Positions 2,857 to 24,811 of a stretch of DNA of 41,570 nucleotides are shown one piece after another. The stretch comes from an uncultured Methanomicrobia archaeon (GTDB taxonomy: Archaea > Halobacteriota > Bog-38 > Methanoflorentales > Methanoflorentaceae): contig CAYHCZ010000005.1 in assembly GCA_964355295.1 (NCBI GenBank), forward strand, positions 1 through 41,570, read 5' to 3'. Each line of letters starts with the position of its first letter. Position 1 is the first letter of the stretch. The translations under genes were made by a program, and so were the position numbers. The notes below the pieces were generated by a model. The model did not search any database. It was not told the DNA's origin and worked only from the letters and a program-made list of their open reading frames with translations.

Positions 2857-3300
2857 TCACGTTCCCGCTGTTTCGCCCAATGTTGCAAGCGGAACATAGG
2901 GCTGCTCTGATTCTCCAATAACTACTTTCCCGTCACTTTCCAGCCACGCATGTGCTTCGAACCCCTTTACCTCCCCCTCAGGCTTGGTCACCCCTACGTG
3001 GACGATAGTAGGATACCCGTAATGCGCGAGGAAGACCTGTCCAGCGAGCGCTTGGGTTAAACACGTCGCGCGGGGAACGTAGCAGCTGGCGATGCGCACC
3101 TCACGGGCAAGCTGCGCTGTAGTAGGCGCAACAGTACGTTTGTCACGTGGCGATGCAGTAATCCGCGAAAGCAGTGCCTGAAAACGCGGGAATCGAATTA
3201 CCGAGAGTCCGATTCTTACTCCCGCAACGATACAAAAAGCGCGAAGGAATCGTCGTTGCTCAGCTGACGTCAAAGAAATGAAACGACGAAAGTTACTCAT
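2857..3300 (-). CDS. Lasso peptide biosynthesis B2 protein (transglutaminase-like leader peptidase)
   Basis: ATCLTQAL (catalytic Cys) and FEAHAWLE (His) motifs; ATG at 3300 (MSNFRRF) overlaps the B1 stop. Confidence 0.93.
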   Translation of the reverse strand: MSNFRRFISLTSAEQRRFLRAFCIVAGVRIGLSVIRFPRFQALLSRITASPRDKRTVAPTTAQLAREVRIASCYVPRATCLTQALAGQVFLAHYGYPTIVHVGVTKPEGEVKGFEAHAWLESDGKVVIGESEQPYVPLATLGETAGT

Positions 3301-3592
3301 TATCAACGATGTCGATGAGGTCGTTTTTGGCGAGCTGCTGGAGGAGGGCGATGAGATCCTTTTCGCAGCGGTCGACTTCCACGTCGTACTCCTCAAGGAG
3401 GGTGTCGCGGACCTCTCGCACCGTCCGCGGCGTTTCTATGAGCTTCCAGATTCGTGCGCCGACGGGGTCTAACCCATAGTAGACGCCATCTTTGAGGTTA
3501 AGGATTGCCGCTTCATCCCCGAGATCGGCGGAGGCTTGTTCCTTTGACACAACGACGGTATTATCAAGTGTAATTTTAGTGTTGGTAACCAT
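3293..3592 (-). CDS. Lasso peptide B1 protein / PqqD-family RiPP recognition element
   Basis: 99 aa; DLGDEAAILNLKDGVYYGLDPVGARIWKLI and EYDVEVDRCEKDL are classic PqqD/RRE; adjacent to B2. Confidence 0.95.
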   Translation of the reverse strand: MVTNTKITLDNTVVVSKEQASADLGDEAAILNLKDGVYYGLDPVGARIWKLIETPRTVREVRDTLLEEYDVEVDRCEKDLIALLQQLAKNDLIDIVDNE

Positions 3593-4531: not shown

Positions 4532-4660
4532 TCAGCTAAAATGATAAATTGATCCGCCCTGGACGTCATCCCCAGCAGGTCCCAAAGATCGCGTTATCTC
4601 AGCAGTGGAACCAATGACCGTAAGCGAAGGCGTTTGATACGTTTTTTTGCTCGACTTCAT
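4532..4660 (-). CDS. Lasso peptide precursor A1: MKSSKKTYQTPSLTVIGSTAEITR|SLGPAGDDVQGGSIYHFS
   Basis: Hand-translated 42-aa ORF; leader YxxPxL...G...T(-2); core Ser1 with Asp7/Asp8, aromatic tail and C-terminal Ser; directly downstream of cyclase C1. Confidence 0.92.
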   Translation of the reverse strand: MKSSKKTYQTPSLTVIGSTAEITRSLGPAGDDVQGGSIYHFS

Positions 4661-4726: not shown

Positions 4727-6667
4727 CTAGTCGATTATATATCTTGCTTTTCTTGTACGCGCATCTGACGCACGAGCGAGCCAGCACCGTAGCAGTGCTG
4801 CTTTAAAGAGTACAAGCTCACCACTGTTACAGCCGTTGCAGCATTGCTCGTATAGCCCACACAACTTTGCTGTATCCACATAGTCGCTAATGAGTGGGGG
4901 ACTGTCTGCGCACGTATCCTCCATGACGGCTCGATCGAAGGCAAGCAGACTCCGCCGCAAGTTGGGGGCTAGGTTTGACTTATCGCGGCGCCATTGAACT
5001 TCGGGGGGAAGGCACCCGCCTAAGGCACGTCGCGTGATTGAACGGGTCCATCCGTTTCTAACCTTCTGCTCAGTGGGCAGCGCGAGACAGAATTCGACGA
5101 GGCGTCGATCGAAAAAAGGATGGCGGATCTCGAGCGAGAAAGCCGCAGCGGCCTTGTCAGCGATCTCAAAGGCAGTCTGAATCCACGTGAACCTGAGCTC
5201 CTTTTTGTGCCATTCCCGCGCCATCCGGGATATCTGAGAGATCGTTAACGTGAGCGGTTCGCCGACGTCATCCAGGTGAGCTTTCTTGGCAAAATCAGAT
5301 CGTATGTAGGCCCGGTCAGGCACGCGTTGTATGCGACGCACCTTTCTCAACACCGTCGCGACCCTCTCGAGCGCGGTGTCGTGGATCAATGGGAGGGCCA
5401 CGAATTCCCAGAGGACGCGACGCCGTGTGACGCGCTTACGTGCGGCAAATGCGTCTAATTCTCGTCTGACGGCAGGCCAGTTGCGGGCGCACAGCAGTTC
5501 AACGAGAAACCCTCTGCCGTGTGAGACGGTCGTATCACCATCCTCGCCGTCGAGAAGCACCCGGACGTTCGCCTGGTGCGCGGCTTCAAGTAACGCCCAT
5601 TTCACGAAGAGGTTCCCCGCTCCGAACGGTTCCTCTTCGTGCCAGAGCATCTCGTCGCTTTGCATGAAGGGACCGAATCGATCGGGATGGACGTAGTGGG
5701 GGGCACAGTCGCCTTGATCGATGACGGCGTTTATGAAGGTGCGCTCGTCACATTGCGGCACGCTATCAAAAAGCGCTGAGAACGTGTGGAGTGGCAGTGA
5801 CGGCACGCTTCCGCGCGTGCCATCGTGTCTTAAGAGATCGCGGGCGACACACGTTACCGACGAGGAATCCAGGCCGCCGCTGAGCTCGGAGCCGACGGCG
5901 TTGGCACTCCGGAGGCGACAACGGACGGCTTCGGTGAAGATAGTAAGGAAGGCACGTTCGTACTCCTCGTCGGTGTTGTAGTGGACTTCTCGAGCGACGT
6001 CGAGAGACCAGTAGGCACGCAGGTGCGCGCGGTCTGAAGTCACCGTAAGAGCATGGGCTGCGGGAAGGCGGAGGATGTCTTCGTAGAAGGTGCTGGCGCG
6101 GTCATCCTGAACAGAGGCGAGATAGCGGGCGATCTGCGCCTCGTTTGGCCGCCGTGGCACCTCGGGGAGGCAAAAAAGGCCCCTCATCTCTGAGGCGAAA
6201 ACAAAGAGCGCGTCAGAGCGATAGTAGTAGAAGGGCTTTACGCCCATGTGGTCTCTCGCACAAAAAAGCACGCGCCGTTCGTCGTCCCATATGGCAAAGG
6301 CGAAGTCGCCGAGGAGGTGTTCGGGACAGTGCTCGCCCCAGCGTTCATACGCGCTAAGAATAAGCTGACTATCGGTCAGGGGTGATCCAGCTGCTGTGAA
6401 ATGCAGTGCGGCGATGAGCTCGTCGCGGTTATCAATACGGGCATCGGCGGTGATGGTAAAGCGGGCGTCGTCGCTGGTGCACGGAAGGTGTTCGTGAAGG
6501 GATTCGGGAGTCGTCCAGAGCATGCGGTGGCCGAGGCCAACCTGGCCATGGCGCCAGGTGTCGGACCCGTCGGGGCCGCGATGGGCGAGGGCGTCGTTCA
6601 TCAGGCCAATGGCTGAGGGGTCGACTTTTCGGTCGTCGTGCACGTAGATGCCGGTGATCGCGCTCAC
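4727..6667 (-). CDS. Lasso peptide cyclase C1 (asparagine-synthetase-like isopeptide-bond-forming enzyme)
   Basis: Likely start GTG at 6667 (MSAITGIY, Ser in place of the glutaminase Cys); HRGPD, DARIDNR, SGGLDSSS, RHPFFDRR. Confidence 0.92.
   Translation of the reverse strand: MSAITGIYVHDDRKVDPSAIGLMNDALAHRGPDGSDTWRHGQVGLGHRMLWTTPESLHEHLPCTSDDARFTITADARIDNRDELIAALHFTAAGSPLTDSQLILSAYERWGEHCPEHLLGDFAFAIWDDERRVLFCARDHMGVKPFYYYRSDALFVFASEMRGLFCLPEVPRRPNEAQIARYLASVQDDRASTFYEDILRLPAAHALTVTSDRAHLRAYWSLDVAREVHYNTDEEYERAFLTIFTEAVRCRLRSANAVGSELSGGLDSSSVTCVARDLLRHDGTRGSVPSLPLHTFSALFDSVPQCDERTFINAVIDQGDCAPHYVHPDRFGPFMQSDEMLWHEEEPFGAGNLFVKWALLEAAHQANVRVLLDGEDGDTTVSHGRGFLVELLCARNWPAVRRELDAFAARKRVTRRRVLWEFVALPLIHDTALERVATVLRKVRRIQRVPDRAYIRSDFAKKAHLDDVGEPLTLTISQISRMAREWHKKELRFTWIQTAFEIADKAAAAFSLEIRHPFFDRRLVEFCLALPTEQKVRNGWTRSITRRALGGCLPPEVQWRRDKSNLAPNLRRSLLAFDRAVMEDTCADSPPLISDYVDTAKLCGLYEQCCNGCNSGELVLFKAALLRCWLARASDARTRKARYIID
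4735..4741 (-). promoter_or_regulatory. Putative TATA box for precursor A1
   Basis: Minus strand AAAAGCAAGA-TATATAA about 75 nt upstream of the ATG, inside the 3' end of C1. Confidence 0.4.
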
Positions 6668-6973
6668 GTCGTAGCTCCGGGTTCTGACCAAAGCAAACAA
6701 CCAGTCACGCGGTAGTACGCTCCGCGTGCGCGTCTCTGCCGAGATCCTTTTGGCAGCACGCTAACGTGGGTGGGCTTTAGCGTATGGCTCCCAGAAGAGG
6801 GGTGTTCGCTCAAGGTGCCATTCCACCACAAACCTTTGTTCATGTACGTATTAAAGCTTGATGCCGCGTGCGACGCGGCACTGTTCGATGGGCGTTTCGA
6901 CTCCTGCCACAACGCAGGAGAGGAGCGACCTGCATCAGTAGCGCGCACACGTTCGTCGAGGCGGTCGTACGGA

Positions 6974-7873
6974 TCACTCTTTGACGGTGTTCACTGCAGC
7001 CTCGACAAGCCGCACTGCCTGCGGAATCTCATCGAGGGAGGCCCCCGTGTGCAAGCGGCGGACGCTGGCGGTGCGGAGCACACTCGCGCACTGCACCATA
7101 TTCCGCACAGTGGCGTCCGGCGTGAACATCCTGTAGCAATACGAATGACTCACGAGTTGAATAAGGGCTTCGTGCGGCGTGAGCGTTTCGATAGAAGGGA
7201 TATTGCCCCGGCTGAGCACGAAGACGTGGTTTAGGGGTTGCCGTTCCGCGGAGAAACGGCCTGCCGCGTGAAATGCCCGCTTTTCAACGGTGGGCCCCAC
7301 CCGTTCGAGGCGTTGCGGATCGTACGAAAAGCGCTGCAGAGATTGCGGCCAGCAGTTGATTTGGGGGCACGCGGGAATGACGGTTGACGCGTGCGCGTCG
7401 ACCTCGATTGCAGTTACGTCATCAGCGATGACGTAACGCCCTCGGGCGTAGAACGCCAGCGCAACGGTCGATTTTCCCTGTGCGGAGGTCCCTACAAAAG
7501 CGACTCCCTCGCCGTTTATCGTCAACGCGCTCGCATGAAGCACAAGCCGCCCCCGTTGGTGAAGGAGGGCACCAAACCCTGCCCCCAGCACCACTGCCCG
7601 CAGGACAGGTACAGGGACTTCTTCTAGGGGATCGATGATGATTTCACGGCCGTCACGCATCATTAGCGTACCGACATCATCCCAGAAGCGGTAGATGCAC
7701 TGGTTAGTGACGCAGAAGTCTGGCCCAGAAACCGTTCCTTGACCACCTGTCGAAGGTATCTCGAGACGGCCTAGAGAGATGGTCACGTCGGCATTATCGC
7801 TGGCGCACGTCTCAAGAGTGGGAAAGGAAAGAGCTGAGCGCGTCCCTAGGCCGTATATCGTGTAGTGGAACAT
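6974..7873 (-). CDS. HPr-kinase-like lasso peptide kinase K1
   Basis: LHQRGRLVLHAS, Walker A GTSAQGKST, IADD; probable start MFHYTIYGL (the ORF extends to 7945). Confidence 0.88.
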   Translation of the reverse strand: MFHYTIYGLGTRSALSFPTLETCASDNADVTISLGRLEIPSTGGQGTVSGPDFCVTNQCIYRFWDDVGTLMMRDGREIIIDPLEEVPVPVLRAVVLGAGFGALLHQRGRLVLHASALTINGEGVAFVGTSAQGKSTVALAFYARGRYVIADDVTAIEVDAHASTVIPACPQINCWPQSLQRFSYDPQRLERVGPTVEKRAFHAAGRFSAERQPLNHVFVLSRGNIPSIETLTPHEALIQLVSHSYCYRMFTPDATVRNMVQCASVLRTASVRRLHTGASLDEIPQAVRLVEAAVNTVKE

Positions 7874-8658
7874 TCGAATTGGTGCGAGTCGAGAGTACTT
7901 TTTGAACGTTATTCCCGTCAGTCTCTTATCTAAAACTTCAGTCAATATCTTTTTGCCGGGAACGCCAGATGAATCCCCTGTGTTCTGCTGGCGGTGCTCC
8001 GAGCGCTTGAGAAGGCATACGTATCCACCGCATTAATCTTTTTTCTTGTCACCGTCTCATTATGCACTGCTTCCCCGCTGATTCTCCCTCTTTGCGGATG
8101 TCCGTGCCGTCCCTCAGGTAGTAGTAGATGCAAACAGATTCTGGCGCGACGAAGCAGGCCCTTTAAACTCTCGTTGGAGACGCTCACGGTGCCGATCACA
8201 GAGCTGATCGCAGGCATAACAGGTTCGCGCAGAAAGGCTTCGAGATATTCGAGTCGGTGAGCCAACGCTCGACAACCACTACCTTCCCGAGCATAAACTC
8301 TCCCGCGCGTCCCGCGGACGCGGTCGTCGTACCTGCCGCAGGCGCTGACGGTCGGAATAGGGGTCGATCGGCAAGGTGCTCGACGTGAGCACGCGTTCAA
8401 GCGCATCGCAATCGAAGGTGATAGGACCGTGCCGAAAATCGGAGAAAAGGTCGCCGTGTCTGTCCGCATTAATGATGTCCTAAAGGAATGCATCAAAAAC
8501 GCTTGAGCAACATCGTAGCACCGTTGTACGTTCACTTAAAGGTGAAGAAGAGTACGGTTGATGTTTCGCCTCGCGCCGCTTCAGTAAAGCCGCTGCCACT
8601 GTAGAAAAAGAGAAAGGAAATAAGGGGAGGGAGCACGGGCCCTACCCCACCATCACCG

Positions 8659-9948: not shown

Positions 9949-10285
9949 CTTTCTCTCTCGGAATTTTAGTCAAGCGTTCGCCGTTGCGCCTTGTTCAATG
10001 TTAACAAGTAGCATACGTGTAACGGCAAATGTAATTAATGTGAAATTGACGCAAACAGCGAATCTAAATTGTATAATGTGTCGTTATTGCCGTTAAAGTT
10101 TGCTATCAATTACGTGTAGCAGCGTTGTGTCACAACGATGATAACAACGTGAGGCCGTAAATCGTGTGCTACATCGCCAGGCTCAAGACGAGGTTGATGG
10201 GAGGAAAGGATCAGGTCGGTGGTCTCATGATGGTGCCCTCGCGTTTCTAGTCGTGCCTAAGGGATTAAATGGTCATAAAAGCGAT

Positions 10286-10688
10286 TTAGATACTGACGTC
10301 AAAAAACCGAGCTTTGACATGGCGGAGGTCGCCGGTCCGAATCCGGCCGAGCCCATTAGAATCGCCCTCCTTCTTATTTTTGTGAAGTTTATTGCGTTCG
10401 TTTAAAAGAAGAAATGATTTTAACTCACTGATCTGTGATTCAAGCGCTTCAAAGTGTCGGTCATAGGCTGTTTCATCGTCTGGTTTTAACTATCTCGCTG
10501 GGTTGTAAAACCATGTCATAGTTTAGCACTTGCTGGTTAGTAACAAGTAGAGAAGGCCTTTTTCCATTTCGTTCGGTTTCAAAAACGTCCGCTATTTCAC
10601 CGACAGTATCAGCAAGATGTGGGGGTAGCCGAATTTGAGGGTAATCTTCTGACAAACGCAGCTCACCAAACCCAAAACAATGTCGCAA
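10286..10688 (-). pseudogene. Frameshifted N-terminal fragment of an SSV-type tyrosine integrase (intN)
   Basis: ORF 10473..10688 continues after a frameshift as LKPDDETAYDRHFEALESQISELKSFLLLNERNKLHKNKKEGDSNGLGRIRTGDLRHVK, reading through the antisense tRNA fragment as split archaeal integrases do. Confidence 0.55.
10314..10355 (+). tRNA. 3' half of tRNA-Val(GAC): partial, attachment-site remnant
   Basis: TTGACAT GGCGG AGGTC GCCGG TCCGAAT CCGGC CGAGCCCA = anticodon loop, T-arm (TTC mutated to TCC) and acceptor 3' strand; no 5' half upstream. Confidence 0.8.
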
Positions 10689-10985
10689 CTAGTTGCGACT
10701 ATTCGCCTTGTGGTTCAACGCCGCGCGAGCGGGCAATGATGGAAAGTGTCGAAACGTGGCGCGAGAAATGAATAAACCAAAGCGACTGGTTAGCTGGTCC
10801 TCTGTTTGGCGTGTCTCGTTAGCACGTCTACAAATAACTCCCGGGCCCAAACAGCACGTTTACAGATGCGCGCTTTTACATTGCTCCGACGAAATAAGCT
10901 CCGCTGCGTGTGGTTGCCGAAAAAATAAGGAAGGGGGGCGCCCCCCGCGGACGGTTCACCACGGTCTACGACGAGGTGCGGTACG

Positions 10986-12012
10986 TCAGGGGGGGATAGG
11001 AGCGGTTATATCGCTCTCTGAAGCCGCATAGGTCGAATCTCCTGCAAATCTCGCTTGATAGAAGTTGCCGGCCGGTACCATTTCAACGAAATTCGACAAT
11101 GTACTATCAGTGGTGGTTACGTCAACCTTTGAATTGAGTGTCGTTGGGGTCGGCCCATAGTATATACTTACTGTTAGACCAGCGAGAGGATTACCGCCCA
11201 GGTCCCTTAGATACCCCTCGAACCAATAGGGTACATCTGGTGAGGCCGAGGCCCAAACGGCAAAATCTCCGATCTGCGTCAAGGTCTTGTAAGTATGGTC
11301 GTACGGTGCAATGAGCGTTTGCGTCTCTACACTCAGTTGATTGCCTAAAGCGTCAAAGGTCTTGAGCGTCACCACCACTGGTACGCTCGCGCTTACGTCG
11401 GGGTATCCATATGTGTCTACAAAGGGTTGTGGTGATGTGACAGAATAGCTCCACCCCCGCCCCGCATACGAGCCGCTGGAACTTATTTCATACAATGCAA
11501 TGTTGCTTGGGGGGGTATTCACCTGCTATGATCATCCAGTTCGCATGCCACATAGAGTAGTAAGAATCGTACGTCCAGCCCTGAAAAGTCGCGGTCATCA
11601 GTGAAGTTTTGACTATCACCGTGATCGTATCACTCACGCTCGCCCCATACGCGCTCGTCCCGGCAAAGTGCGCCCGTATGGAGTACGTTCCTACTACGGT
11701 AATGTACCCTTTGAAGCTGTACTGCCCCTGATTACCGGTGACCTTGTCCAAGCTGATACGCTGCCAACTCCCCTCATACAATGCCTCGAGGTAGACGGGC
11801 TTCCCGGCGAGGGCTCCGGTATCCGTGCTGAGTGTGCCGGTGATGGTGAACTTCCCGTTCTTTGTTACGTCTATGTTGTGGTTGCCGTTTGTGGTCGCGG
11901 TGAGCGTTGTTGGTGCTGCACCGTTCGCGCTAGTTTTTACAGCAGCTGTTGCGACAAACAAAGATAACAACATCAGAGCCACTAAAGATAACGATAACAC
12001 TTTTTTCATCAT
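10986..12012 (-). pseudogene. Secreted Ig-like surface protein split by a 1-nt frameshift (ORFs 11488..12012 and 10986..11522)
   Basis: Signal peptide plus Big-like domains; removing one G from the G7 run at 11509-11515 joins IIAGEYPP to SNIALYE. Confidence 0.7.
11615..11890. repeat. Domain-encoding repeat, copy 2
   Basis: Matches 8678..8968. Confidence 0.85.
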
Positions 12013-12788: not shown

Positions 12789-14660
12789 TTACTGTCTTGG
12801 GTTGCTTCGCGCAACTCCTTGTACCTGACACAGCTCGTTAAAACGTCCGTTTTCCTTTCTGGAAAGCGTCGCCCAGTCTCCAGATTCAATGATTCGGCCG
12901 TCTTCGAGCACATAGATGATATCCGCGTTTCGTATTGTCGAGAGACGATGCGTTATGATGACAATGGTCATGTCGCCGTGCAGGGCGTCGATCGCGTCCT
13001 GGATCCGCCGCTCGTTTTCCGAGTCCAGGCTGCTCGTTGCTTCGTCGAGCAGCAACACGGCCGGCTGACGTAACAACGCGCGTGCTAAGGCCAACCGTTG
13101 GCGCTCACCTCCCGATAACCGTACGCCGCGGTCACCGAGCACCGTCTCTATACCACTGGGAAGCTGCGACACAAAGTCCTCTGCAGCTGCCGTGCGTAGA
13201 GCGGCAGTAATCTCCGCGTCGCTCGCCGTGGGATACGCCCATAAGAGGTTCGCGCGCACGGTATCGTTAAAGAGGAAGGTGTCCTGTGCGACGTAACCGA
13301 TGTGACGGCGCCACGCGTAAAGACGTTCGGCATTCAGCGGCACGTCGTCGATGAGAACTTGCCCTTCACGCGGCAGGATAAGCCCCATGATGAGGTCGGC
13401 AAGTGTGCTCTTTCCCGCACCAGAACTGCCGACGATTGCGGTCGTTTCCGCTGCGTTGACGACGAAGTTGATGTTGTTGACAGCCGCCTGCCCATCATCA
13501 GTATATGCGAAGGAAACGTCTCGGAACTCGATACATTGTTGCAGATTTACCTCTTGCGGGTCGTCGATCTCACGTTCAGCCGCTGCTTCGCATCGCGTCT
13601 GGATCGCCATGATGTTGGCAAACGAGGGCAGCATGTTGATGAAGTACTGGTAGGTCTGCTGAATCGACGAAAATTTAGGGATAATGCGGTAGAATAGAAA
13701 CAGCAGGAGCAGCGCAACGGCCCCCGGAATGTGCAAAATCTCGATTAAAACAACAAGAGACGCGCCGAGGATAAGCACCGATCCGATGTCAAACAAGCTA
13801 CGCGTACCGCTCCAATTCCGAATGTAACCGACGTTTGCACCCTTAATCTGCTCATTGAACTTTGAAAAGAGCGCAGCGTTCTGTTCCTGAGCACCGTAAC
13901 TCTTGATGGCCTTCATCCCATTGAGGTGCTCGGTTATGGCGCCAAAAAGCTCCCGCGTATCTGCGGATAAAGCCGTGCCCTTTGCCCGCGCAAGGGAAAC
14001 CTTGCGCCTGAGAGTAAGAAGGAGGATTATCCCGCACACGACGACAGCGCCTGTCACTACCGCCGAGAGTTGCCACGCAATAAATAGATAGACCAACACA
14101 ACCATTACGCTCACCGCCAGTTGCAGCACCTGTTGCGTGCCAGCGCCGACGCGTTCGATCTCTGCGGTTAACGCATGTATAAACGTCGAGGCCCGCTGGC
14201 GTGAAAAGAAGAGCCAAGTGGTGTTGATGATCGCGTTGTACAGTCGTTGCCTGAGAAGCGATTCGAGCTCGTAGGTGATCGTAAAGCTCGTGTTGTTTTG
14301 CCAGCGGTTCAAGAGCGCGTAGAGGCTCATAATCACGACGTAGACGGCGAGCACCGAAACAAGGGTTATCGGGAATCCGACAAGCGTGAAAAACGACGCG
14401 ACATAGTAGGTGATACTTCCCGTTGTGCCCTGCCCCGTGTTGAAACCTACGAGCTGTAACAGCGGTAGCAAGAGCAGAAGTCCCACCCCTTCGGTTAGAG
14501 CGAGCGCTACCGTGAGCGTTACGGCAAGCGCCACCTGACCGGGCATGGTGCCCCACAGGAGAGAAGCGTATTGCCCCGCTTTGCTGTGTTGTACCCAAGA
14601 GGACGCAGACGCGCGCAGTCTTCTGCTTATAGACGGTGCCTCGTGTGCTTCGGTGGCCAA
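12789..14660 (-). CDS. ABC transporter, fused permease/ATPase (lasso exporter D)
   Basis: N-terminal TM domain; GSSGAGKST, LSGGERQR, LLLDEATSSLD, H-loop. Confidence 0.92.
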   Translation of the reverse strand: MATEAHEAPSISRRLRASASSWVQHSKAGQYASLLWGTMPGQVALAVTLTVALALTEGVGLLLLLPLLQLVGFNTGQGTTGSITYYVASFFTLVGFPITLVSVLAVYVVIMSLYALLNRWQNNTSFTITYELESLLRQRLYNAIINTTWLFFSRQRASTFIHALTAEIERVGAGTQQVLQLAVSVMVVLVYLFIAWQLSAVVTGAVVVCGIILLLTLRRKVSLARAKGTALSADTRELFGAITEHLNGMKAIKSYGAQEQNAALFSKFNEQIKGANVGYIRNWSGTRSLFDIGSVLILGASLVVLIEILHIPGAVALLLLFLFYRIIPKFSSIQQTYQYFINMLPSFANIMAIQTRCEAAAEREIDDPQEVNLQQCIEFRDVSFAYTDDGQAAVNNINFVVNAAETTAIVGSSGAGKSTLADLIMGLILPREGQVLIDDVPLNAERLYAWRRHIGYVAQDTFLFNDTVRANLLWAYPTASDAEITAALRTAAAEDFVSQLPSGIETVLGDRGVRLSGGERQRLALARALLRQPAVLLLDEATSSLDSENERRIQDAIDALHGDMTIVIITHRLSTIRNADIIYVLEDGRIIESGDWATLSRKENGRFNELCQVQGVARSNPRQ

Positions 14661-14779: not shown

Positions 14780-16705
14780 CTAAGAGCGCTTCAGGATCGT
14801 GCGCTTCAGCCAAAGTCCAAGGATCAGCGCGTTCCACACAAACGTAGCGTTTTTCCTTTCACAAGAGAATGCAATATATAAACGTTTCAACATATCACGG
14901 TCGATGTAGCGTTCGAGCTGGTGTGAGTTGATCAAGAAAGTGTCTTCAAGCCGATCACGCTCAAAACGTAAGAGGGCCTCGCTAACAAGCGGCGCGAAGT
15001 CTGTTTTACTAGTCCGCTGTCGGATTTCGAGGGGCAGACACGTGGCTAAGGCGCGCCTTACGATAGCCCGCGTATAGCCATCGCGAACCTTCTGTTCAGG
15101 GGGCAAGGCCAAACAGTACTCAACAACTCGACGATCATAGAAGGGATGGCGGAGTTCCAAAGAAAACGCTGCGGCTGCCTTATCGAGCGTTTCTAGATCG
15201 TATTGATCCCTCCCCCCTATAAGATTGTCGTGGTGGAACGCCCGCGAGGTGCGAAGCTCCCAGTCCTTTCTTCGATCCTCTTCAATGAGCTCCCGAACAC
15301 CTGAACGTTGAAAAAGCATTGGTTTCACGAACGGCTGTGCGATCAACAAGCGAGAGGGTCTATGCAGCGTTCGCCATATGCGGCCCACTGCGTTTGGCGT
15401 AAGAGTTCGGACCACCGGGAAGAAGATCAGATTTTTCAAAGCGAGATGCAACGGGATGTCGTAGTTCCTAGCCGCCCTTTTTCCCTCTTTCAACATTGTC
15501 ACCCATTGACCTCTTAAAAAGAAATCCGCCCAGACGTGAAATCCATAGGAGACTACCGCATCACCCGATTCGCCATCCAACAGGACCCGGGTGCAAGCCG
15601 CTTGCGCACTGCTGTGAACGGCCCAATGATAGAATATAACCTGGTCGTGGACCGGCTCATCCTCGTGCCATAGTATATGCTCTATGTCTGCAAGCGGGCT
15701 CTGCTCGTCGAGGTGGACGTAATGGGGTAGGAGGTCGCCTTGGGCAACGATTACCTCGATGTACCGTCGCTCGTCGTACATCGGATCTTCAAAAACTGCA
15801 GAAAAACAATGGAGAGGTCGAGAATGACTAAGAGATCCATCGCGGCGAAGAATATCTCGAGCGATACAGGCGACGGAGGACGAATCAAGACCCCCACTTA
15901 GCTTGATGCCGACAGCATATGCGCTACGGAGGCGGCAGCGGACAGCTTCGGTGAAGACCTTACGGAATGCCTGTTCGTATTCTTCGTCAGAATCGAAGTG
16001 GAGTTCGAAGGTGGGATCGGGCGCCCAGTAGCGATAAAGACGCTGGCCGCCTTCGGTTATGACGACTACGTGCGCAGCGGGTAAGCGAAGGATATTATGA
16101 AATGAAGTGATCTGCGGATCGTAGTATAACGCGTTATAGGAATGCCCCTCTTTAACTAAATGTCGTGCGATTTGCACTTCGTTGAGCTCCCGATGCACCT
16201 CAGGGAGACAAAAGAGGGCTTTGATCTCAGAGGCGAACGCGAAGAACACCTCAGAACGGTAATAATAGAAAGGCTTGATGCCCATGTGGTCGCGCGCGCA
16301 GAAGAGGGACTGACGGGGACCGTCCCAGAGAGCAAACGCGAAGTCGCCGAGGAGGTGGTCGACGCAGTCTTCCCCCCAGTGCTCATAAGCGTAGACGATG
16401 AGCTGGCTATCGGTGATCTGCTCAGGAGGTTGAGTTAGACCAAGGGCAGTGATGAGCTCGTCGCGGTTATCGATACGAGCATCGGCGGTGACGGTGAAGC
16501 GGGCGTCGTCGCTGGTGTAGGGGAGGTGCTCGTGGAGGGACTCTGGGGTTGTCCAGAGCATGCGATGCCCGAGGGCGACAGGACCGTCATGCCATATTTC
16601 GGAGGCGTCGGACCCGCGGTGTGCGAGGATATCGGTCATCTGGCGTATGAACGCAGCTCCGACAGCGTTGCCATTTAAGCTGTAAATGCCAGCAATGCCG
16701 CTCAT
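14780..16705 (-). CDS. Lasso peptide cyclase C2
   Basis: MSGIAGIY, DARIDNR, SGGLDSSS, RHPFYDRR. Confidence 0.92.
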   Translation of the reverse strand: MSGIAGIYSLNGNAVGAAFIRQMTDILAHRGSDASEIWHDGPVALGHRMLWTTPESLHEHLPYTSDDARFTVTADARIDNRDELITALGLTQPPEQITDSQLIVYAYEHWGEDCVDHLLGDFAFALWDGPRQSLFCARDHMGIKPFYYYRSEVFFAFASEIKALFCLPEVHRELNEVQIARHLVKEGHSYNALYYDPQITSFHNILRLPAAHVVVITEGGQRLYRYWAPDPTFELHFDSDEEYEQAFRKVFTEAVRCRLRSAYAVGIKLSGGLDSSSVACIARDILRRDGSLSHSRPLHCFSAVFEDPMYDERRYIEVIVAQGDLLPHYVHLDEQSPLADIEHILWHEDEPVHDQVIFYHWAVHSSAQAACTRVLLDGESGDAVVSYGFHVWADFFLRGQWVTMLKEGKRAARNYDIPLHLALKNLIFFPVVRTLTPNAVGRIWRTLHRPSRLLIAQPFVKPMLFQRSGVRELIEEDRRKDWELRTSRAFHHDNLIGGRDQYDLETLDKAAAAFSLELRHPFYDRRVVEYCLALPPEQKVRDGYTRAIVRRALATCLPLEIRQRTSKTDFAPLVSEALLRFERDRLEDTFLINSHQLERYIDRDMLKRLYIAFSCERKNATFVWNALILGLWLKRTILKRS

Positions 16706-17446
16706 AGACTCTTCTGAAATCAGTTAGCTAACTGTAACGGTTAAGCTTTCCCATTGTGGCATACGTATCATCAAGCTTCAAACCAAGAGGTAATGATACT
16801 GATAACCGGCCCCTCTGCTAGTGAGACAACTGCCTTGCGTACAAGTGATTACGTCTGCGAAAGAATCTCGCTAAACAAAAGTTGCTGCCAGATTCATAGC
16901 CTGCGATAACCGTGCTCATCTGCTCGGATGAGGTAAGTGAGCTAATACATGTAGTTTCTTTCAAGAGACGCGATTACGAGATACTGTAGATCCGATAGCT
17001 TTAGTGAGTGCTCGTTTTATCGTTGGTTTACTTGTTGAAGCTGTGTCTCGGACTATTGGCTAGCCTGCAAGTATGGCTGCCGTTTCTGCTAGCTTCTGAA
17101 TCGCTTTGCTAAACTGCGTGAAGCATGGTACTCTCGCTTGAGGGGTCCCTTAGGTTTCAGCTCCGATGTTCTCCTTGTGACAACTTATAGGGGTTTTATG
17201 AGGACGCATTTTTCAAGAGCATTGCAAACTTTGCAGCACGATAGATAACTACTTGCAACACTGTCACAGAATCTCACAGAGGCTGGCAGGTCTAGTTCTT
17301 GCTTGCGGGGGTGATTCAGCGGCCATAAACGAATGCGTTATTACCTCCAATCGGGTCTGTAAACGCTTCCAGTTAGACGAAGCGAAGCGCTTCGAGGGGG
17401 GCAGCGGCACGAGGTTTCAACTGCTGCTGCTAACATCGAGGGGTTA

Positions 17447-18424
17447 TTACCACCTGATCTTGACTGCATCTTCTATCAGATGTACGAGCGCCGGAAGCGA
17501 CTCGAGAGAGCGACACGTTCTGGCACGAAGGGTTGTTGTCGACGCAGCGACGCGTGCGCAGCGCGATAGGTGCGTGACGATCTCCTCTTCAGCTAGCAGC
17601 CTAAAGCAATAGGAGTTATCGAGAAGCGCGGCGAGGCTTTCTCGGCGCGAAAGTCTTTTCAGAGCACTTTCAGCAGCTGGATCGAGAACGCATAAGTACT
17701 TAAGGGGAACATCGGCGTCGGGAAATTGCTGTCGCACTGGAAAAGCGCGCTTCACCGAGTAGGGGGTGCACGTGCTCAACGTCGCTGGGTCGTGCGAGAG
17801 TGCCGCCAATGTATCGGGCCAGAGGTTTATTTCGGGATACGCAGGCGGAACGACTGGCGATGGCCCGTCGAGCTTGACGGCGACAACGTCGTCGGCCACT
17901 AGCTGGTGTCCGCGGGCGTGGAGCGCGAGGGCGAGGGTCGATTTTCCTCGTCCTGATTTCCCAAGAAAAATAACTGCTTCACCATCGATCGCAGCGGCGC
18001 TTGCGTGAAGAGTAAGGAAACCCCGCTGGTGGAGGAGCGCTGCAAATACGTCTGTAAGAATCATCTTGCGAAGTACTCTCTCATCTGCGCCGGGCGACGG
18101 ATTGACGGTGATCTCTCGTCCGTTTTGCACCAAAAACGTCCCAATGCCTTCCCAGAACAGGAGTATACCTCGCGAAGCAACGCGATAGTTCGCGCCAGCT
18201 GCAGTGATTTCGTCTGACGCCGGTAATGAGCTTACACGGCCGTAGCGGACTACAACGTCGACTTTTGTTGGGGCGCTCACGGGAGCGCTGAAAAAAGGGA
18301 TGACAGAAGCAACGCTTAGTCCGTATAACGTACAAAAGTACGATCCATTTGTCACTGGCGCTTGCTTCAAAACATCTGTTGTCACTAACGCGTGGTCTTT
18401 TTTAATGCAATCTGCAGAAACCAC
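17447..18424 (-). CDS. HPr-kinase-like lasso peptide kinase K2
   Basis: LHQRGFLTLHAS, GKSGRGKST, VADD; start uncertain. Confidence 0.88.
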   Translation of the reverse strand: MVSADCIKKDHALVTTDVLKQAPVTNGSYFCTLYGLSVASVIPFFSAPVSAPTKVDVVVRYGRVSSLPASDEITAAGANYRVASRGILLFWEGIGTFLVQNGREITVNPSPGADERVLRKMILTDVFAALLHQRGFLTLHASAAAIDGEAVIFLGKSGRGKSTLALALHARGHQLVADDVVAVKLDGPSPVVPPAYPEINLWPDTLAALSHDPATLSTCTPYSVKRAFPVRQQFPDADVPLKYLCVLDPAAESALKRLSRRESLAALLDNSYCFRLLAEEEIVTHLSRCARVAASTTTLRARTCRSLESLPALVHLIEDAVKIRW

Positions 18425-18471
18425 GCCACCGCTCAGACTTTGTCGATTTCAACGTAAAAGGTCGAATATTA

Positions 18472-18536
18472 AGGATCTCGCTCGGGATCCGCCCCGAGAT
18501 CCTACGGTTTTGGCGAAACCTGACTTTCGTCAGGTT
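18472..18536 (-). terminator. Two stem-loops at the 3' end of precursor A2
   Basis: AACCTGAC-GAAA-GTCAGGTT (18517-18536, perfect 8-bp stem over the stop codon) and AGGATCTCG...CGAGATCCT (18472-18503). Confidence 0.55.
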
Positions 18537-18670
18537 CCTTGAGTTTTCGCTCGGGGGGCTGGAGAGCCGTCGCCTGAGCCCGTCCCTCGCAGCGTATATT
18601 CCCTCAAGGATCCGATACAAGTCAACTTTGGCTGTGAGTAATTCCTTTTTGTGCGGTCTTCTATGTTCAT
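18530..18670 (-). CDS. Lasso peptide precursor A2: MNIEDRTKRNYSQPKLTCIGSLREYTL|RGTGSGDGSPAPRAKTQGT
   Basis: Hand-translated 46-aa ORF; YSQPKL...IG...T(-2) aligns without gaps to the A1 leader; core has Asp7; lies between C3 and K2. Confidence 0.9.
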   Translation of the reverse strand: MNIEDRTKRNYSQPKLTCIGSLREYTLRGTGSGDGSPAPRAKTQGT

Positions 18671-18713
18671 TTTGATACCCTACACTTAACAAATGTGATA
18701 GATTATCGTTTGC

Positions 18714-18720
18714 TTATATA
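18714..18720 (-). promoter_or_regulatory. Putative TATA box for precursor A2
   Basis: Minus strand AAG-TATATAA-GC about 45 nt upstream of the ATG. Confidence 0.5.
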
Positions 18721-18833
18721 CTTAACATCCCACGAGGACTTAATTGTTCCTATTTGTCGCGCTCGCACAAACGCGTGCTAGAGCTACACCGCGAAAGCGG
18801 TGTAAGAGCCTTGAGGTCACCGATCCTCATAAT

Positions 18834-20747
18834 TCACTCGACAAAGCTAGCGTTGCGTTCTTTCTCCTTTTGTAGCCAAAGTTCTAGAACAACAACTTGC
18901 CACACTGCGTACCCTCCCCGAGTATCCCCTTTGGTCACCAAGTCAAACGCTTTGCGGGCTTGAGAGATCTCAACGTAATTATCGACCAGGCGATGCTCCT
19001 TTGACAAGACTTCCTGCACAAGCGCCTTGTCAAACGTACGTAAACCACGATAGAAGACTGCCGCATTGCTCGATTTGTCAACTCGACATCGTATTGCGCG
19101 CGGAAGACAATTAACCAATGCACGCCGCGCCACTACCCTGTTAAACCCTGCGCTTAGCTTTTGCTCTGCTGGGAGGGCTAAGCAGAACTCGACCAACCGC
19201 CGGTCGTAAAACGGATGTCGGCCCTCCATTGAAAAATCTGCAAAAATCTGATCCATCACTTCTAGGTCAAATTGCACTTTCGGCGCCGTAAGGTCTTTGT
19301 AGTGCCTCTCGCGCGCCGTCCGGGTCGTCGATCGAGCACGGTCGACGATGTCCACTTGCGGCTCGAGCTTAATGCGCTCAGCAAAGTCTCGTTTAATCAA
19401 CAGTTCTGGGGCTGCTGGCTGCACTACCTGTGGCACTGCCCTACGCAACGTTCTACGAACGATGTTAGGCGCTGATGCGACCAACATAGGTAACAAAATG
19501 TCACGTCGTGATCTATGAGTACGCTTAGAGAGCGCGTTGATCTCCCGTAGCAGGGTGCGCAGTTTCAGGTTGCGCGCCAGTTCAAAGAAACGGCCGTCGC
19601 CATGCGATACGACACTATCACCGTCCTCGCCGTCTAAGATCACACGAATCCGAGCATTTCGGGCGGCTGCCAGCAATGCCAGCCCAATTTGATCGCCGGC
19701 CGAGTGATAAAGCTGATCGAGTTGCCGCACAATCTCCTGAACGTCATCAAAAGGGTCTCGCTCATCAGCCGGCACTAAATGGGACTCAAGATCGCCTTGG
19801 GCAACGATCGCGTTGATGAAGTAACGCTCGTCACTCTCCGGCACATTGTCGTAGAAAGCGGAGAACGTTTGGAGCCGCTGTGATGGTAAACGCCCGTTTA
19901 GATCTTGCTTCCTCAGCAGCTCACGCGCTACGCACACGACCGAAGATGAGTCAAGTCCGCCGCTAAGCAGTGACCCGACAGGATAAGCGCTGCGGAGGCG
20001 ACAACGAACGGCTTGTGTGAAGAGGTCACGATAAGCACGCGCATACTCCTCATCTGAAGCAAGGTGGATTTCACGCGTAGGATCAAGGAACCAATACCGA
20101 CGGAGTTCGACACGTCGATCGCTGATAAGCAACGTATGAGCGGCAGGCAACCGCACGATGTCGGCGTAGAAAGTGATTTCCCGGTCCTCAAAGTTGCTTT
20201 TCAAATAATGCATTATTTGCACCTCGTTGACCTTCCGGGGAACGTCCGGGACAGTGAAGAGGGCTTTGATTTCGGAAGCGAAGGCAAAAAGGTGATTTTG
20301 AGCGTGATAGTAATAGAATGGCTTGACCCCCATGTGGTCTCGGGCACAGAAGAGCTGCTGCTGAGAGCCGTCCCATATAGCAAACGCGAAGTCGCCGAGG
20401 AGGTGTTCGGGACAGTGCCGGCCCCAGCGGTCGTATGCACGAACGATGAGCTCGCTGTCGGCGATCTCGTCAGGTGATGCAGTTAAGCCAAAAACTGAGA
20501 TGAGCTCATCACGATTATCGATACGAGCATCACTCGTCACGGTGAGTGGGGCAAGGGTGAACGGCAATCGTTCGTAAAGGGATTCCGGAGTCGTCCAGAG
20601 CATTCGGTGGCCGAGCCCGACGGAGCTTTCTTGCCACGTGCCCGCAGCGTCGGGACCGCGTCGCGCGAGGCTATCGGTCATGTGCTCAAGTAGGCTAGGG
20701 TCAAGACTCTTGTCATCAAGGCGATAAATTCCGAGAATGCCGCTCAT
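18834..20747 (-). CDS. Lasso peptide cyclase C3
   Basis: MSGILGIY, RRGPD, DARIDNR, SGGLDSSS, RHPFYDRR. Confidence 0.92.
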   Translation of the reverse strand: MSGILGIYRLDDKSLDPSLLEHMTDSLARRGPDAAGTWQESSVGLGHRMLWTTPESLYERLPFTLAPLTVTSDARIDNRDELISVFGLTASPDEIADSELIVRAYDRWGRHCPEHLLGDFAFAIWDGSQQQLFCARDHMGVKPFYYYHAQNHLFAFASEIKALFTVPDVPRKVNEVQIMHYLKSNFEDREITFYADIVRLPAAHTLLISDRRVELRRYWFLDPTREIHLASDEEYARAYRDLFTQAVRCRLRSAYPVGSLLSGGLDSSSVVCVARELLRKQDLNGRLPSQRLQTFSAFYDNVPESDERYFINAIVAQGDLESHLVPADERDPFDDVQEIVRQLDQLYHSAGDQIGLALLAAARNARIRVILDGEDGDSVVSHGDGRFFELARNLKLRTLLREINALSKRTHRSRRDILLPMLVASAPNIVRRTLRRAVPQVVQPAAPELLIKRDFAERIKLEPQVDIVDRARSTTRTARERHYKDLTAPKVQFDLEVMDQIFADFSMEGRHPFYDRRLVEFCLALPAEQKLSAGFNRVVARRALVNCLPRAIRCRVDKSSNAAVFYRGLRTFDKALVQEVLSKEHRLVDNYVEISQARKAFDLVTKGDTRGGYAVWQVVVLELWLQKEKERNASFVE

Positions 20748-20798: not shown

Positions 20799-21812
20799 TT
20801 AGGTGCTCGAAGTTGATATACGCTTAAAGCGTTCCCGTGCCGCCCCCAGGGTGTACAGAATGTCAACTGCGATCGTGGCCCCTGCGAGTGCGGTGATTTG
20901 ACCTGGGTTATCGTACGGCGGCGAGAGCTCCACAACATCTCCACCCACGATGTTCAATCCTTCAACGCTCCATAGAATTGCGCGGGATTTAAACGTGTCC
21001 GGCCCGCCAATCACGGGGGTGCCGGTTCCGGGCGCAAAAGCAGGGTCAATGAAATCGATGTCAAATGTCAGATAGACGGGGCTTTCACCGACGATCTTTC
21101 TGACTTCATTACCGATCTGCGCTGCCGTGTGCTCATTCACGAAGAGCCCATCAAGAACGCTAAAGCCTTTACCCGTCGATCGATCGTATGGCGAGCGGAC
21201 GCCGATGTGCACAGAGCGCCGCGGATCGACCAGACCTTCCTGAACGGCACGATAGAACTGGGCACCGTGATTGTACTCTTCTGAGTCGAGGTCATCGGTG
21301 TGGGCATCAAAGTGAACGAGTGACAGAGGACCATAACGTTTGGCATAAGCGCGAAGAATAGGGTACGTAGCGAAATGGTCGCCTCCGAGCATTAAGATTG
21401 ACGCACCAACGCTTAGAATGAGCCCGGCCATTAACTCTGTGTTCTTGATCATCTTCTCAGGATGGCCTGGCGGACACCGCACGTCGCCGAAGTCTCGGGT
21501 CTTATACCTCTCTTTGACATCATAGTCTCTCGGCCACGCACGTCCACGTCCGTGCAGGCCGGTATACTGCGAGAGATCACGAAGGGCGCGAGGTCCAAAG
21601 CGTGCCCCTGGCCGGTAAGAAGTGCCGAGATCGAACGGGATTCCGAGAATGGCTAGCTCGGTGTCAGCTTGGTCAGTAGGAAACGGCGCATTCATAAAAG
21701 AGGTATCAAGGCCGACTAGAGCTTGGTGCCCCTCTCTGTTAATGAGGTCTTCTAACTTTCCATCCGCGTCAGGATTCTTTCGCACAGTCGCTCCCAATTT
21801 TGCTATATCCAT
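20799..21812 (-). CDS. speB: Agmatinase/arginase-family (ureohydrolase) protein
   Basis: GIPFDLGTSYRPGARFGP, GGDH, DAHTD, DIDFIDPAFAPGTGTP; Mn ligands intact; substrate not established. Confidence 0.88.
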   Translation of the reverse strand: MDIAKLGATVRKNPDADGKLEDLINREGHQALVGLDTSFMNAPFPTDQADTELAILGIPFDLGTSYRPGARFGPRALRDLSQYTGLHGRGRAWPRDYDVKERYKTRDFGDVRCPPGHPEKMIKNTELMAGLILSVGASILMLGGDHFATYPILRAYAKRYGPLSLVHFDAHTDDLDSEEYNHGAQFYRAVQEGLVDPRRSVHIGVRSPYDRSTGKGFSVLDGLFVNEHTAAQIGNEVRKIVGESPVYLTFDIDFIDPAFAPGTGTPVIGGPDTFKSRAILWSVEGLNIVGGDVVELSPPYDNPGQITALAGATIAVDILYTLGAARERFKRISTSST

Positions 21813-22788: not shown

Positions 22789-23958
22789 CTAGAGTCGGGG
22801 TTGCAACAGTGAAACGACAAATTCCACCGTCACGCGAAGAGGGTGGTAAAAGTAGTAAAAAGGCGTCAATGACGCCGGCAAGGACATAAGGCGAAAATCG
22901 TTTGCTGTAGGTACGAAAACATAAAAAAAGAGGATATGCACACGGTCTCTCAAGCTCTCTTTGGTCGCCAGCCGGTCAAAAACACTATCAAACTTTGAGC
23001 GGCGCTTAGGTTCTTTAAAAAGCGCATCTCTTGCATGCTCAGCAAGCTTTCGCGCTCCAGCATCGCGCTTAGCAGCAGCCAAAACCTCTTCAGGCACTGG
23101 TATATTGAAGAGATCGCACACCAAGAGGAGGCTTACAAAAAGCGCTCGTTGACCCTTCGTCTTTTGCACCTGCTCCCAAAGAAGGTCCCAATTGAGGCGA
23201 GGATACCGGTAGATGATCTCCGCCACGTCACTTATTACATCAAGAGAGAGCCAAAGATGACTCGCCGCGTGAATGCATGAAACGAACAGCAGATCCTCTG
23301 CGGATAGGATGCACACATTTTCGCCGAGCAAGCATATATCGGACGAGTTATTCACGAGATCCGGCACGATTGACACACGTAGATATGCAGCAGACATGAT
23401 ATCCCAATGCAGGTCGACCTCGGCCTCACCGAAAGCCGCGCTCTCAAACTGACGCTCAAAGCCACACTTGAGAAGAAGGCGCTCTTGGACGCTGTTGCAG
23501 CGAATCCGAGGTTCATACTCGGCTGAACGAAGTAGTACCTGCACGCGTGCAAAATCTTCTTTGAGTATCAAGATGTCAAGATCCTCACTACGCCGAATGC
23601 CAACATCCTGGTATATTAGTTGTGAGAAAACGGGCCCTCGTAAGGGAATCAAAAGGATGCCGTTATCTTTAAACAAACGAATGAGGCGACGGAGCTCTCC
23701 AATCAAGCCTAGGTTCCTTAGCACGTTCTTCTCAAAATTACAACGCAGGTCATCCATTACTATTAACGGCACGCGATCAAACGCCAAGTCGTTAAGATGC
23801 TTGTAAAGGCGGGCCACTACCAAGTGCCGCTCCGCGAGCGCAACAAGGCGGTTCCAGTCAACGTCCTCCTCCAGCAACGCGTGAGCGCGCTCCGCGGCAG
23901 GGCCGTCGAGGTGTGCCCGCGCACATAACAACAATAACTCTTCTTCGGGCGTGCTCAT
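22789..23958 (-). CDS. Nucleotidyltransferase family protein (NTP_transf_5, lasso-associated type)
   Basis: DWNRLVALAERHLV, PLRGP (usually LKG), RRSEDLDILI, VDLHW, CIHAASH. Confidence 0.85.
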   Translation of the reverse strand: MSTPEEELLLLCARAHLDGPAAERAHALLEEDVDWNRLVALAERHLVVARLYKHLNDLAFDRVPLIVMDDLRCNFEKNVLRNLGLIGELRRLIRLFKDNGILLIPLRGPVFSQLIYQDVGIRRSEDLDILILKEDFARVQVLLRSAEYEPRIRCNSVQERLLLKCGFERQFESAAFGEAEVDLHWDIMSAAYLRVSIVPDLVNNSSDICLLGENVCILSAEDLLFVSCIHAASHLWLSLDVISDVAEIIYRYPRLNWDLLWEQVQKTKGQRALFVSLLLVCDLFNIPVPEEVLAAAKRDAGARKLAEHARDALFKEPKRRSKFDSVFDRLATKESLRDRVHILFFYVFVPTANDFRLMSLPASLTPFYYFYHPLRVTVEFVVSLLQPRL

Positions 23959-24811
23959 GTTAAGCGTGGTGTGCCTGCGTTCTTATTTGAGTTTGTTATA
24001 GTGTGACCTTTGTAACGACCAGACTTAACAGCATTACGCTCATCGTGCTGGGCCGTACCTGCGCTTTGTCATCATCTACGAATTCGTGTTTGCTTAAACG
24101 ATTGTTGTCAACAAGACGTTTTCTGTTCGCTAAGATATACAGTCCACTTTATGGGGGGGCCACAAGGCATCAGCTCGTAAATCTCAAAGTGGCCGGAGCG
24201 AGTGAATTAGTAGGGTAACTTGCACACTTTAGCTTTACTGGTTCGGGTAAGGCTATATCATTTCGGCTCTATTCTTGTAGTAGTTGGCAAGCGGCGTGAA
24301 GAGGCACACGAAACACGAAACGTAAGTTGTGCGACTTACTTTTTAGTTGCGCGGCAGCGAATGAGTGATGCAGGATCCCTGTGCTCTCGCCAACCGTATC
24401 AAGTATAGCCAGTCCAAGTTGTTTTGAAGCAACGCTTTCAGCTGCGTTCTGGTTTCTTCCTCGAGGTGCTTCCTTGCACAGCAAAGGAGCGATTCCTATC
24501 CAGCGCGAGATGTCACCTTGATTGTTTGTGTGGCTTAGTTCCTTTTTGCGTATAGATATGTCGATGACAGATTCGTTTTCACTGGCCAAAACGCAGGAAT
24601 CAAATAAGCTTCATTTTATGTAGACTTCTCACTACGTTTCTTGATGCAACTAATTGATGACGCGGCGGACGACTGGAAAAAGGTTGAGTGACCTTTCAAA
24701 AAGAAAGTGGCCGTTGCTCAGAAACATGGCGGAAGCAAAAAGTCCTATGATAGAGGCGATCAGTTGCACTTACGTCTTATTCATTCATCTTTTTCGCCTT
24801 CAGACGGACCA

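Follow-up and report, generated by a model that had tools for sequence, protein, structure and literature searches.

The 41,570-nucleotide stretch of archaeal DNA analysed here (the window) very probably encodes a lasso-peptide precursor, A2, in the canonical precursor slot of the kinase-associated lasso family. The gene lies on the minus strand at 18530..18670, ATG start and TGA stop included, and its 46 codons translate to MNIEDRTKRNYSQPKLTCIGSLREYTLRGTGSGDGSPAPRAKTQGT. An earlier note on this DNA had pointed to a precursor-like gene below the cut-off of the open reading frame (ORF) list; re-translation confirmed the 46-amino-acid ATG-to-TGA frame, and the ORF itself is real. That it is a genuine precursor gene we consider quite likely. 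Residues 1-27 are predicted to form the leader and residues 28-46 the core (Arg1...Asp7...Thr19). For genome annotation, the lesson is that precursor genes shorter than 50 amino acids escape both ORF cut-offs and protein catalogues. The lasting interest of the cluster lies in its archaeal host, its multi-cyclase layout and the combination, in the predicted A2 product, of a basic residue at position 1, a seven-residue ring and a threonine terminus.

The precursor gene and its surroundings

A2 sits between the genes of its presumed cognate lasso cyclase, C3 (18834..20747; 637 amino acids, with Asn_synthase and GATase_7 domains), and of an HPr-kinase-like lasso precursor kinase, K2 (17447..18424; 325 amino acids). 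The gaps are 163 nt from the end of C3 to A2 and 105 nt from A2 to K2, and all three genes are on the minus strand. A2 thus adjoins a cyclase gene, and the cluster also holds the B1 and B2 genes, some 15 kb distant on that strand. Two larger ORFs overlap A2 (96 amino acids on the minus strand and 80 on the plus strand), both without a Pfam match. No Rfam family was matched in 16600-18900.

A TATATAA element, a possible archaeal TATA box, was found on the minus strand at 18714..18720, 44-50 nt upstream of the A2 ATG. The identical heptamer is present on the coding strand 75-81 nt upstream of the ATG of the first precursor gene of the cluster, A1 (at 4735-4741). Both elements presumably resemble the archaeal TATA box consensus. 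Six TATATAA sites occur in the window versus 2.55 expected, and six or more were seen in 9 of 100 shuffles; the elements near the A1 and A2 starts are a hint of a promoter signal. Directly 3' of the stop codon, in the A2-K2 gap, are two stable hairpins (18473..18538, minus strand). The 121 nt that follow the stop have a folding energy of -45.4 kcal/mol (z -3.84), and none of 200 shuffles was equally stable. The hairpins are possible transcript-end or stabilising structures.

Also encoded on the minus strand are A1 itself (4535..4660), whose core starts with Ser, carries Asp7/Asp8 and ends in Ser, and the lasso cyclase C1 upstream of it (4727..6700). A third lasso cyclase, C2, is at 14780..16705. 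B1, a PqqD-type RRE (lasso PqqD chaperone) that we presume to be common to A1 and A2, is at 3293..3592, the leader peptidase B2 (Transglut_core3) at 2857..3396 and the ABC exporter D at 12789..14660, all on the same strand. Three secreted PKD-like repeat proteins, encoded on the minus strand between D and the second kinase-like gene K1 (8659-12012), split the lasso cluster into two halves. At 22789..23958, again on the minus strand, is a gene for an NTP_transf_5 nucleotidyltransferase of the PsmN/BsfN type; in excerpts of PMC8498205, such enzymes belong to phospho-glycosylated lasso clusters. An ORF of 106 amino acids at 24269-24589 (minus strand), without a Pfam match, resembles residues 7-42 of this enzyme (tblastn E 0.001) and may be a fragment or duplicate of its gene.

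Only 51 nt upstream of C3 is a SpeB-type gene of the agmatinase/arginase family (20799..21812, minus strand). Its product scores above the NCBIfam agmatinase cut-off, and the nearest proteins of solved structure are agmatinases of the E. coli type (260 bits). An identity as a peptide arginase was considered and is unsupported, as none of the chains among 58 matches (E up to 1e-10) bears that name; action on peptides that contain Arg is likewise unsupported. A second agmatinase copy, on contig C49, shares 30% identity with this gene and matches the type that 14 of 15 congeners carry, which is 29-33% identical to the gene at 20799-21812. The extra agmatinase, of the bacterial SpeB type, may have arrived with the lasso cluster.

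Leader signature, cleavage site and predicted core

The A2 leader carries the signature Y(-17)xxP(-14)xL(-12)...G(-8)...T(-2) with all five positions intact. The strict form of this motif, Y..P.L...G.....T., has two matches in the six frames of the window, A1 and A2, and residue frequencies over 83,136 positions predict 0.034. In mononucleotide shuffles of the window, one match appeared in 3 of 40. Residues 11-27 of A2 align with residues 8-24 of A1 without a gap, and this bears out the register of the earlier note, in which an ungapped alignment with A1 had placed the predicted cleavage before Arg28. In an alignment of eleven archaeal precursors (A2, A1 and nine found in five further archaeal genomes within the phylum), the invariant columns correspond to Y11, P14, G20 and T26 of A2.

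According to excerpts of PMC10368454, YxxPxL spans positions -17 to -12 in kinase-type (Bsf-type) lasso leaders. We place the end of the A2 leader at Leu27 because only then do Y11, P14 and L16 fall at -17, -14 and -12. T26, invariant in all eleven archaeal precursors, then lies at -2. Cleavage before Arg28, giving Arg1-Asp7, is the sole register that combines a ring of 7-9 residues with Thr at -2. One residue toward the C-terminus, the ring would have six residues, and we know of no lasso ring of that size; one residue toward the N-terminus, the pair would be Leu1-Asp8 but with Thr at -1. The T(-2) register is not absolute, because 10 of 60 precursors in the clade described below lack an acid at positions 7-9. 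Arg28 cleavage with an Arg1-Asp7 ring is therefore the best reading of the sequence, though not a certain one.

The tail after Leu27, GSPAPRAKTQGT, has 19 residues. Translation upheld the earlier claim that Asp7 is the only possible ring acid: it is the sole acidic residue, there is no Glu, Phe, Trp, Tyr or His, and the C-terminal residue is Thr. An acid thus stands within the 7-9 range usual for ring closure, and the predicted ring also holds Thr3 and Ser5. A small residue (G/A/S/C) at core position 1 is typical of class II, split-B lasso precursors, though not strictly defining, and A2 has Arg there; likewise, the C-terminal Ser that serves as phospho-acceptor in the paeninodin type is Thr in A2. 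The composition is rich in Gly, Ser, Pro and Ala without a bulky hydrophobic plug, and the larger side chains are those of Arg13, Lys15 and Gln17 only, the residues that the earlier note proposed as would-be steric plugs. The Arg1-Asp7 product has a calculated monoisotopic mass of 1781.877 Da (m/z about 891.946 for [M+2H]2+ and 594.966 for [M+3H]3+), and one phosphate would raise it to 1861.843 Da.

Precursors beside related cyclases

A profile scan of metagenome contigs with the alignment of C1-C3 gave 80 loci, with cyclases 41-50% identical to C3. Candidate precursors with the strict leader pattern were held by 61 of these loci (71 candidates, 60 of them unique). Most candidates (62/71) start at most 700 nt downstream of the cyclase on the same strand; the cyclase-to-precursor distance has a median of 164 nt in the clade and is 194 nt for A2. 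At kinase-bearing loci, 39 of 47 candidates are then followed by a kinase within 700 nt, and a precursor next to a kinase is also found at two loci of a related genome (G018). A2 occupies the family's usual cyclase-precursor-kinase slot.

The first residues of the 60 unique precursors are diverse: G in 20, A in 12, Q in 10, D and F in 3 each, I, L and V in 2 each, and E, K, N, S, T and W once each. Arg at position 1 was found in none of the 60. The other archaeal precursors of the eleven-member alignment are predicted to start with S, V, G, N, F, T or W. Since about 27-28 of the 60 start outside G/A/S/C, the kinase-associated cyclase clade is a source of candidate tolerant enzymes for peptide engineering. 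In the T(-2) register, 50 of the 60 carry an acid at core position 7, 8 or 9. One precursor, at L066, has an acid at position 7 alone, and it starts with Lys; one further precursor has acids at 6, 7 and 9. The rarer feature of A2 is the seven-residue ring rather than Arg1. At the C-terminus, Ser is present in 23 of the 60 and Thr in two, both from L084, a locus with a kinase and a nucleotidyltransferase.

The earlier note had presented Arg1 as rare, and this was overstated for the clade, which includes the Lys1 precursor with the D7-only ring. It had also held that known lasso cores mostly start with Gly, Ser, Ala or Cys, with Trp and Leu as exceptions. That list has since grown: excerpts of PMC12670498 describe an Asn1 lasso peptide, first reported in 2025, and excerpts of PMC13632552 describe, from 2026, lasso peptides that start with Phe or Glu as well as one cyclase that takes all first residues but Pro. 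The same excerpts of PMC13632552 give, for a large-scale analysis of predicted lasso precursors, every residue except Pro at position 1. Arg1 is absent among the natural verified lasso peptides in the parts of PMC12670498 and PMC13632552 available to us and would, by those parts, be new among verified peptides. Given the diversity of first residues in both the clade and the recent literature, it would nonetheless be unsurprising.

Some loci depart from the usual ring position. At L078, L088, L097, L100, L101, L104, L114, L117, L092 and L019, the first ring-competent acid is at core 10; examples are cores of the form xQNKxxGxSD and the three tandem precursors of L019, from the archaeal genome G242. 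An acid at this position implies rings of ten residues, or else a cut that comes one residue later and leaves Thr at -3. L022, L023 and L025 (genomes G365, G170 and G385) encode precursors of 32 amino acids with a canonical leader and a 12-residue core rich in Trp and Asp. Their acids are only at positions 3, 5 and 6 and fit no ring of 7-9 residues in the usual register.

Kinases and the predicted acceptor

K2 has the full motif H-x14-G-x2-G-x-GKS-x15-DD (regular-expression match at residue 140), which is the catalytic motif defined for lasso kinases in the excerpted text of PMC10368454, and an Hpr_kinase_C domain (Pfam PF07475, E 1.6e-10). The other HPr-kinase-like gene, K1 (6974..7945, minus strand), has Ala in place of one Gly of the motif. 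Firmicute and proteobacterial lasso kinases are specific for a C-terminal Ser, as given in part of PMC8498205; BsfK phosphorylates Ser3 of its core and accepts the S3T variant, as given in part of PMC10368454. The K2 acceptor on A2 is plausibly the terminal Thr, as the earlier note proposed; both of the Thr-ending clade precursors sit in a locus with a kinase. It could also be Thr3, in the manner of BsfK.

Contigs from soil metagenome run X1 differ from the window by compensating single-base indels at 17653/17655 and lack a single base at 18398 and another at 18858. The loss at 18398 points to a true K2 start downstream of the GTG at 18424.

Cyclases and the leader-binding protein

The earlier note had spoken of three cyclases, and C1, C2 and C3 are diverged, at 44-48% identity to one another. 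PqqD and Transglut_core3 have one match each in the assembly (2.08 Mb, 60% complete), and the C3-A2-K2 module is without a B1/B2 pair of its own. We found no precursor beside C2. The 740 nt that separate it from K2 (16706-17446) match no Rfam family and hold neither a convincing ORF nor, at E up to 10, a remnant of B1 or B2. Both the Asn_synthase and the GATase domain of C3 are complete. Over 198 conserved columns in 82 sequences, C3 deviates at 19, compared with 20 for C2, a median of 11 and a maximum of 23. By this measure C3 is no more deviant than its homologues and gives no sign of decay. With C3 alone as query, a search of the genome contigs gave one bacterial locus, 33% identical.

We also looked for acidic residues in C3 that would suit Arg1. 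D331, D352 and D504 stand in columns that are acidic in 0 of the 81 other cyclases, and the number of such uniquely acidic columns ranges from 0 to 4 across the family. Three C3 columns are uniquely basic too, and the cyclase associated with the Lys1 precursor (L066) shares none of D331, D352 and D504. The comparison thus offers no usable signal of charge complementarity, and the idea was rejected.

The complex of B1 with A2 was predicted with alignments of 36 sequences for B1 and 11 for A2, alongside three controls. The scores were 0.58, 0.59 and 0.58 for B1-A2 and 0.00 for all three controls; the runs share at least 91% of their contacts, and pLDDT for the partner is 57 or higher. When the method was calibrated, 58 of 80 solved complexes and 2 of 110 mismatches attained the pass mark, and scores of 0.60 or less were those of only 7 of the 80 solved complexes and of both passing mismatches. 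The prediction weakly suggests that B1 takes A2. As solved RRE-leader complexes exist, the score may mirror likeness to these rather than binding.

Homologues, related populations and host

A word-index search of 5.8 billion proteins gave no candidate for A2. With HMMER, 1.84 billion representatives gave no true homologue; the eight matches at E up to 0.001 were judged spurious, being proteins of 664-2767 amino acids with multiple short (repetitive) stretches. The earlier note had proposed tblastn for homologous precursors, and a tblastn-like search of 61 related genomes returned leader-level matches only, at E 0.01 or weaker. Beside the nearest K2 homologues in the congeners G005 and G006 (L016, L017 and L031; 40-45% identity), no A2-like ORF was found. 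One of these, L016 (G006:C18, 340-2385), encodes a kinase 44% identical to K2, two cut-down N-terminal cyclase fragments and a C-terminal PqqD fragment, and is a lasso cluster in decay.

Two metagenomic comparisons bear on the stability of the module. The metagenome contig L059 matches the window at 89% identity in D and 91% in B1, but its two cyclases are only 39-51% identical, and no kinase or precursor was found between them. This suggests that cyclase cassettes have been swapped around a stable B1/B2/D core, an exchange by which orphans could remain. In run X1, contigs are 88-96% like K2 and C3 (17400-20800) and the depth over the A2 bins is non-zero, which suggests that a related population keeps the module.

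The assembly encodes TATA-binding proteins, a family found among 14 control genomes in the 4 archaea only. McrA was not found in this incomplete (60%) assembly, but of 12 genomes searched from the same genus 10 have it. From the archaeal TATA-binding proteins and the McrA of the congeners, the host is an archaeon of a methanogen genus. Titles and abstracts found by a literature search describe no characterised archaeal lasso peptide.

Proposed pathway

On balance we lean toward a reading in which A2 is a separately promoted precursor, cyclised by C3 to an Arg1-Asp7 ring and modified by K2. This reading builds on the ORF, its in-register leader motif, its place in the gene order and the intact catalytic motifs of C3 and K2. 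From these, and by analogy to known systems, we infer the cleavage site, the ring, its threading, the phosphorylation site and the expression of A2. B1, the single PqqD-type protein, would bind the Y(-17)xxP(-14)xL(-12) leader, and K2 would phosphorylate a hydroxyl of linear A2, that of the C-terminal Thr19 or of the ring residue Thr3. B2 would cut A2 after Leu27, with Thr at -2, and C3 would link the Arg1 alpha-amine with the Asp7 side chain, closing a macrolactam of seven residues and leaving 12 for loop and tail. A sugar may then be attached to the phosphate of A2 by the NTP_transf_5 enzyme, and the ABC transporter D would export the modified product.

A bolder and more tentative proposal is that the cluster works as a modular factory, with one RRE/peptidase/exporter set serving three cyclase cassettes. 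In this factory C3, A2 and K2 would make the first natural Arg1 lasso, with a seven-residue Arg1-Asp7 ring, no aromatic residues, Arg/Lys plugs and a phosphorylated, perhaps glycosylated, Thr in place of Ser. If true, the modular arrangement would yield the first characterised archaeal lasso peptide and widen the rules for position 1 and for kinase acceptors. Were A2 processed in the predicted way, Arg would join the few first residues verified so far in lasso peptides and Thr the acceptors of lasso kinases, and a methanogen would yield a lasso peptide amenable to experiment.

Alternative explanations

It is unlikely, though worth weighing, that A2 is a relic whose leader was kept while its core drifted, so that no threaded lasso is made and C3 and K2 are idle or serve A1. 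Such a history would fit the orphan status of A2 in the searches, its low-complexity core without a bulky plug and the lack of B1/B2 in the module. The turnover of cassettes seen at L059, where D and B1 are conserved and the cyclases are not, and the congener G006, in which a truncated cyclase and PqqD fragments lie beside a kinase, would also fit. It accords poorly with a leader in which no signature position has been lost, with C3 and K2 of full length, intact motifs and ordinary conservation, with the promoter-like and hairpin elements that flank A2, and with the retention of K2 and C3 in a related population. That A2 is a chance ORF in an intergenic spacer we regard as highly improbable. 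The ORF is admittedly short and gave no homologue in the searches; however, a motif expected 0.034 times in the window is matched in the family's precursor slot of about 400 nt, in the correct orientation, and the frame has an ATG and a tail of 19 amino acids.

Two further possibilities accept A2 as a precursor and differ in its product. Processing in another register, with cleavage after Thr26 (Leu1-Asp8) or with a Thr1-Asp9 ring, seems improbable. The clade gives it some room, in that several of the ten precursors lacking an acid at 7-9 need a shift of one residue or a ten-residue ring, as do the three of L019, and some kinase-type systems tolerate Ile or Val at -2 (excerpts of PMC10368454). 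Against it, only cleavage before Arg brings Y(-17), P(-14), L(-12) and T(-2) together into the published register, as it appears in those excerpts. A C-terminal shift would meet the same obstacle of a six-residue ring, which as far as we are aware is no lasso ring size. Quite improbable, too, is that A2 is only phosphorylated or glycosylated, or is exported in linear or branched-cyclic form, and is never threaded. Its tail has no obvious steric plugs, which would be consistent with such a product. The intact cyclase directly upstream and the acid at a ring-competent position argue for ring closure, however, and small rings are said to need only small plugs. The kinase and nucleotidyltransferase of known systems do act on linear precursors (PMC8498205, in part), a point in favour of a non-threaded product.

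Comparison with known systems

The paeninodin type of Firmicutes and Proteobacteria likewise has, in C-A-K-B1-B2-D clusters, the order cyclase, precursor and HPr-kinase homologue, a split B1/B2 and an ABC exporter (in part from excerpts of PMC8498205), and its kinase acts on the linear precursor, as proposed for K2 (same excerpts). It differs in ending in Ser where A2 ends in Thr, and the predicted Arg1 and seven-residue ring of A2 set it apart as well. The paeninodin type is also bacterial, whereas the host of A2 is a methanogenic archaeon with three cyclases and two kinases per one set of B1, B2 and D.

BsfA/BsfK of Bradymonas sediminis shares with A2 and K2 the YxxPxL at -17 to -12, a kinase together with a nucleotidyltransferase, and an identical kinase motif (excerpts of PMC10368454). 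BsfA has Ile at -2, Gly1-Asp8 and a phosphorylated Ser3 in that account, compared with Thr at -2, a predicted Arg1-Asp7 and Thr3 in A2. Pseudomycoidin, from Bacillus pseudomycoides, resembles the A2 system in its kinase and NTP_transf_5-type enzyme, with a phospho-glycosylated C-terminal residue (excerpts of PMC8498205 and PMC6993621). Unlike the A2 system, it comes from a bacterium, ends in Ser and has just one cyclase. For ring size the nearest parallel is with the xanthomonins, reportedly lasso peptides with seven-residue rings in which small plugs suffice; these, too, have a seven-residue macrolactam but are said to be Gly1-Glu7 products of Xanthomonas with no kinase, unlike A2.

A non-canonical residue 1, as in A2, is found in metanodin (Asn1) and the palassoptides (Phe1 and Glu1; their cyclase PalC takes all residues but Pro), according to the available portions of PMC12670498 and PMC13632552. 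In these portions, residue 1 is set by Thr(-2) and ring size, like that of A2; theirs is verified and that of A2 is only predicted. A2 itself is very probably a kinase-associated lasso precursor of the paeninodin/pseudomycoidin/Bsf type.
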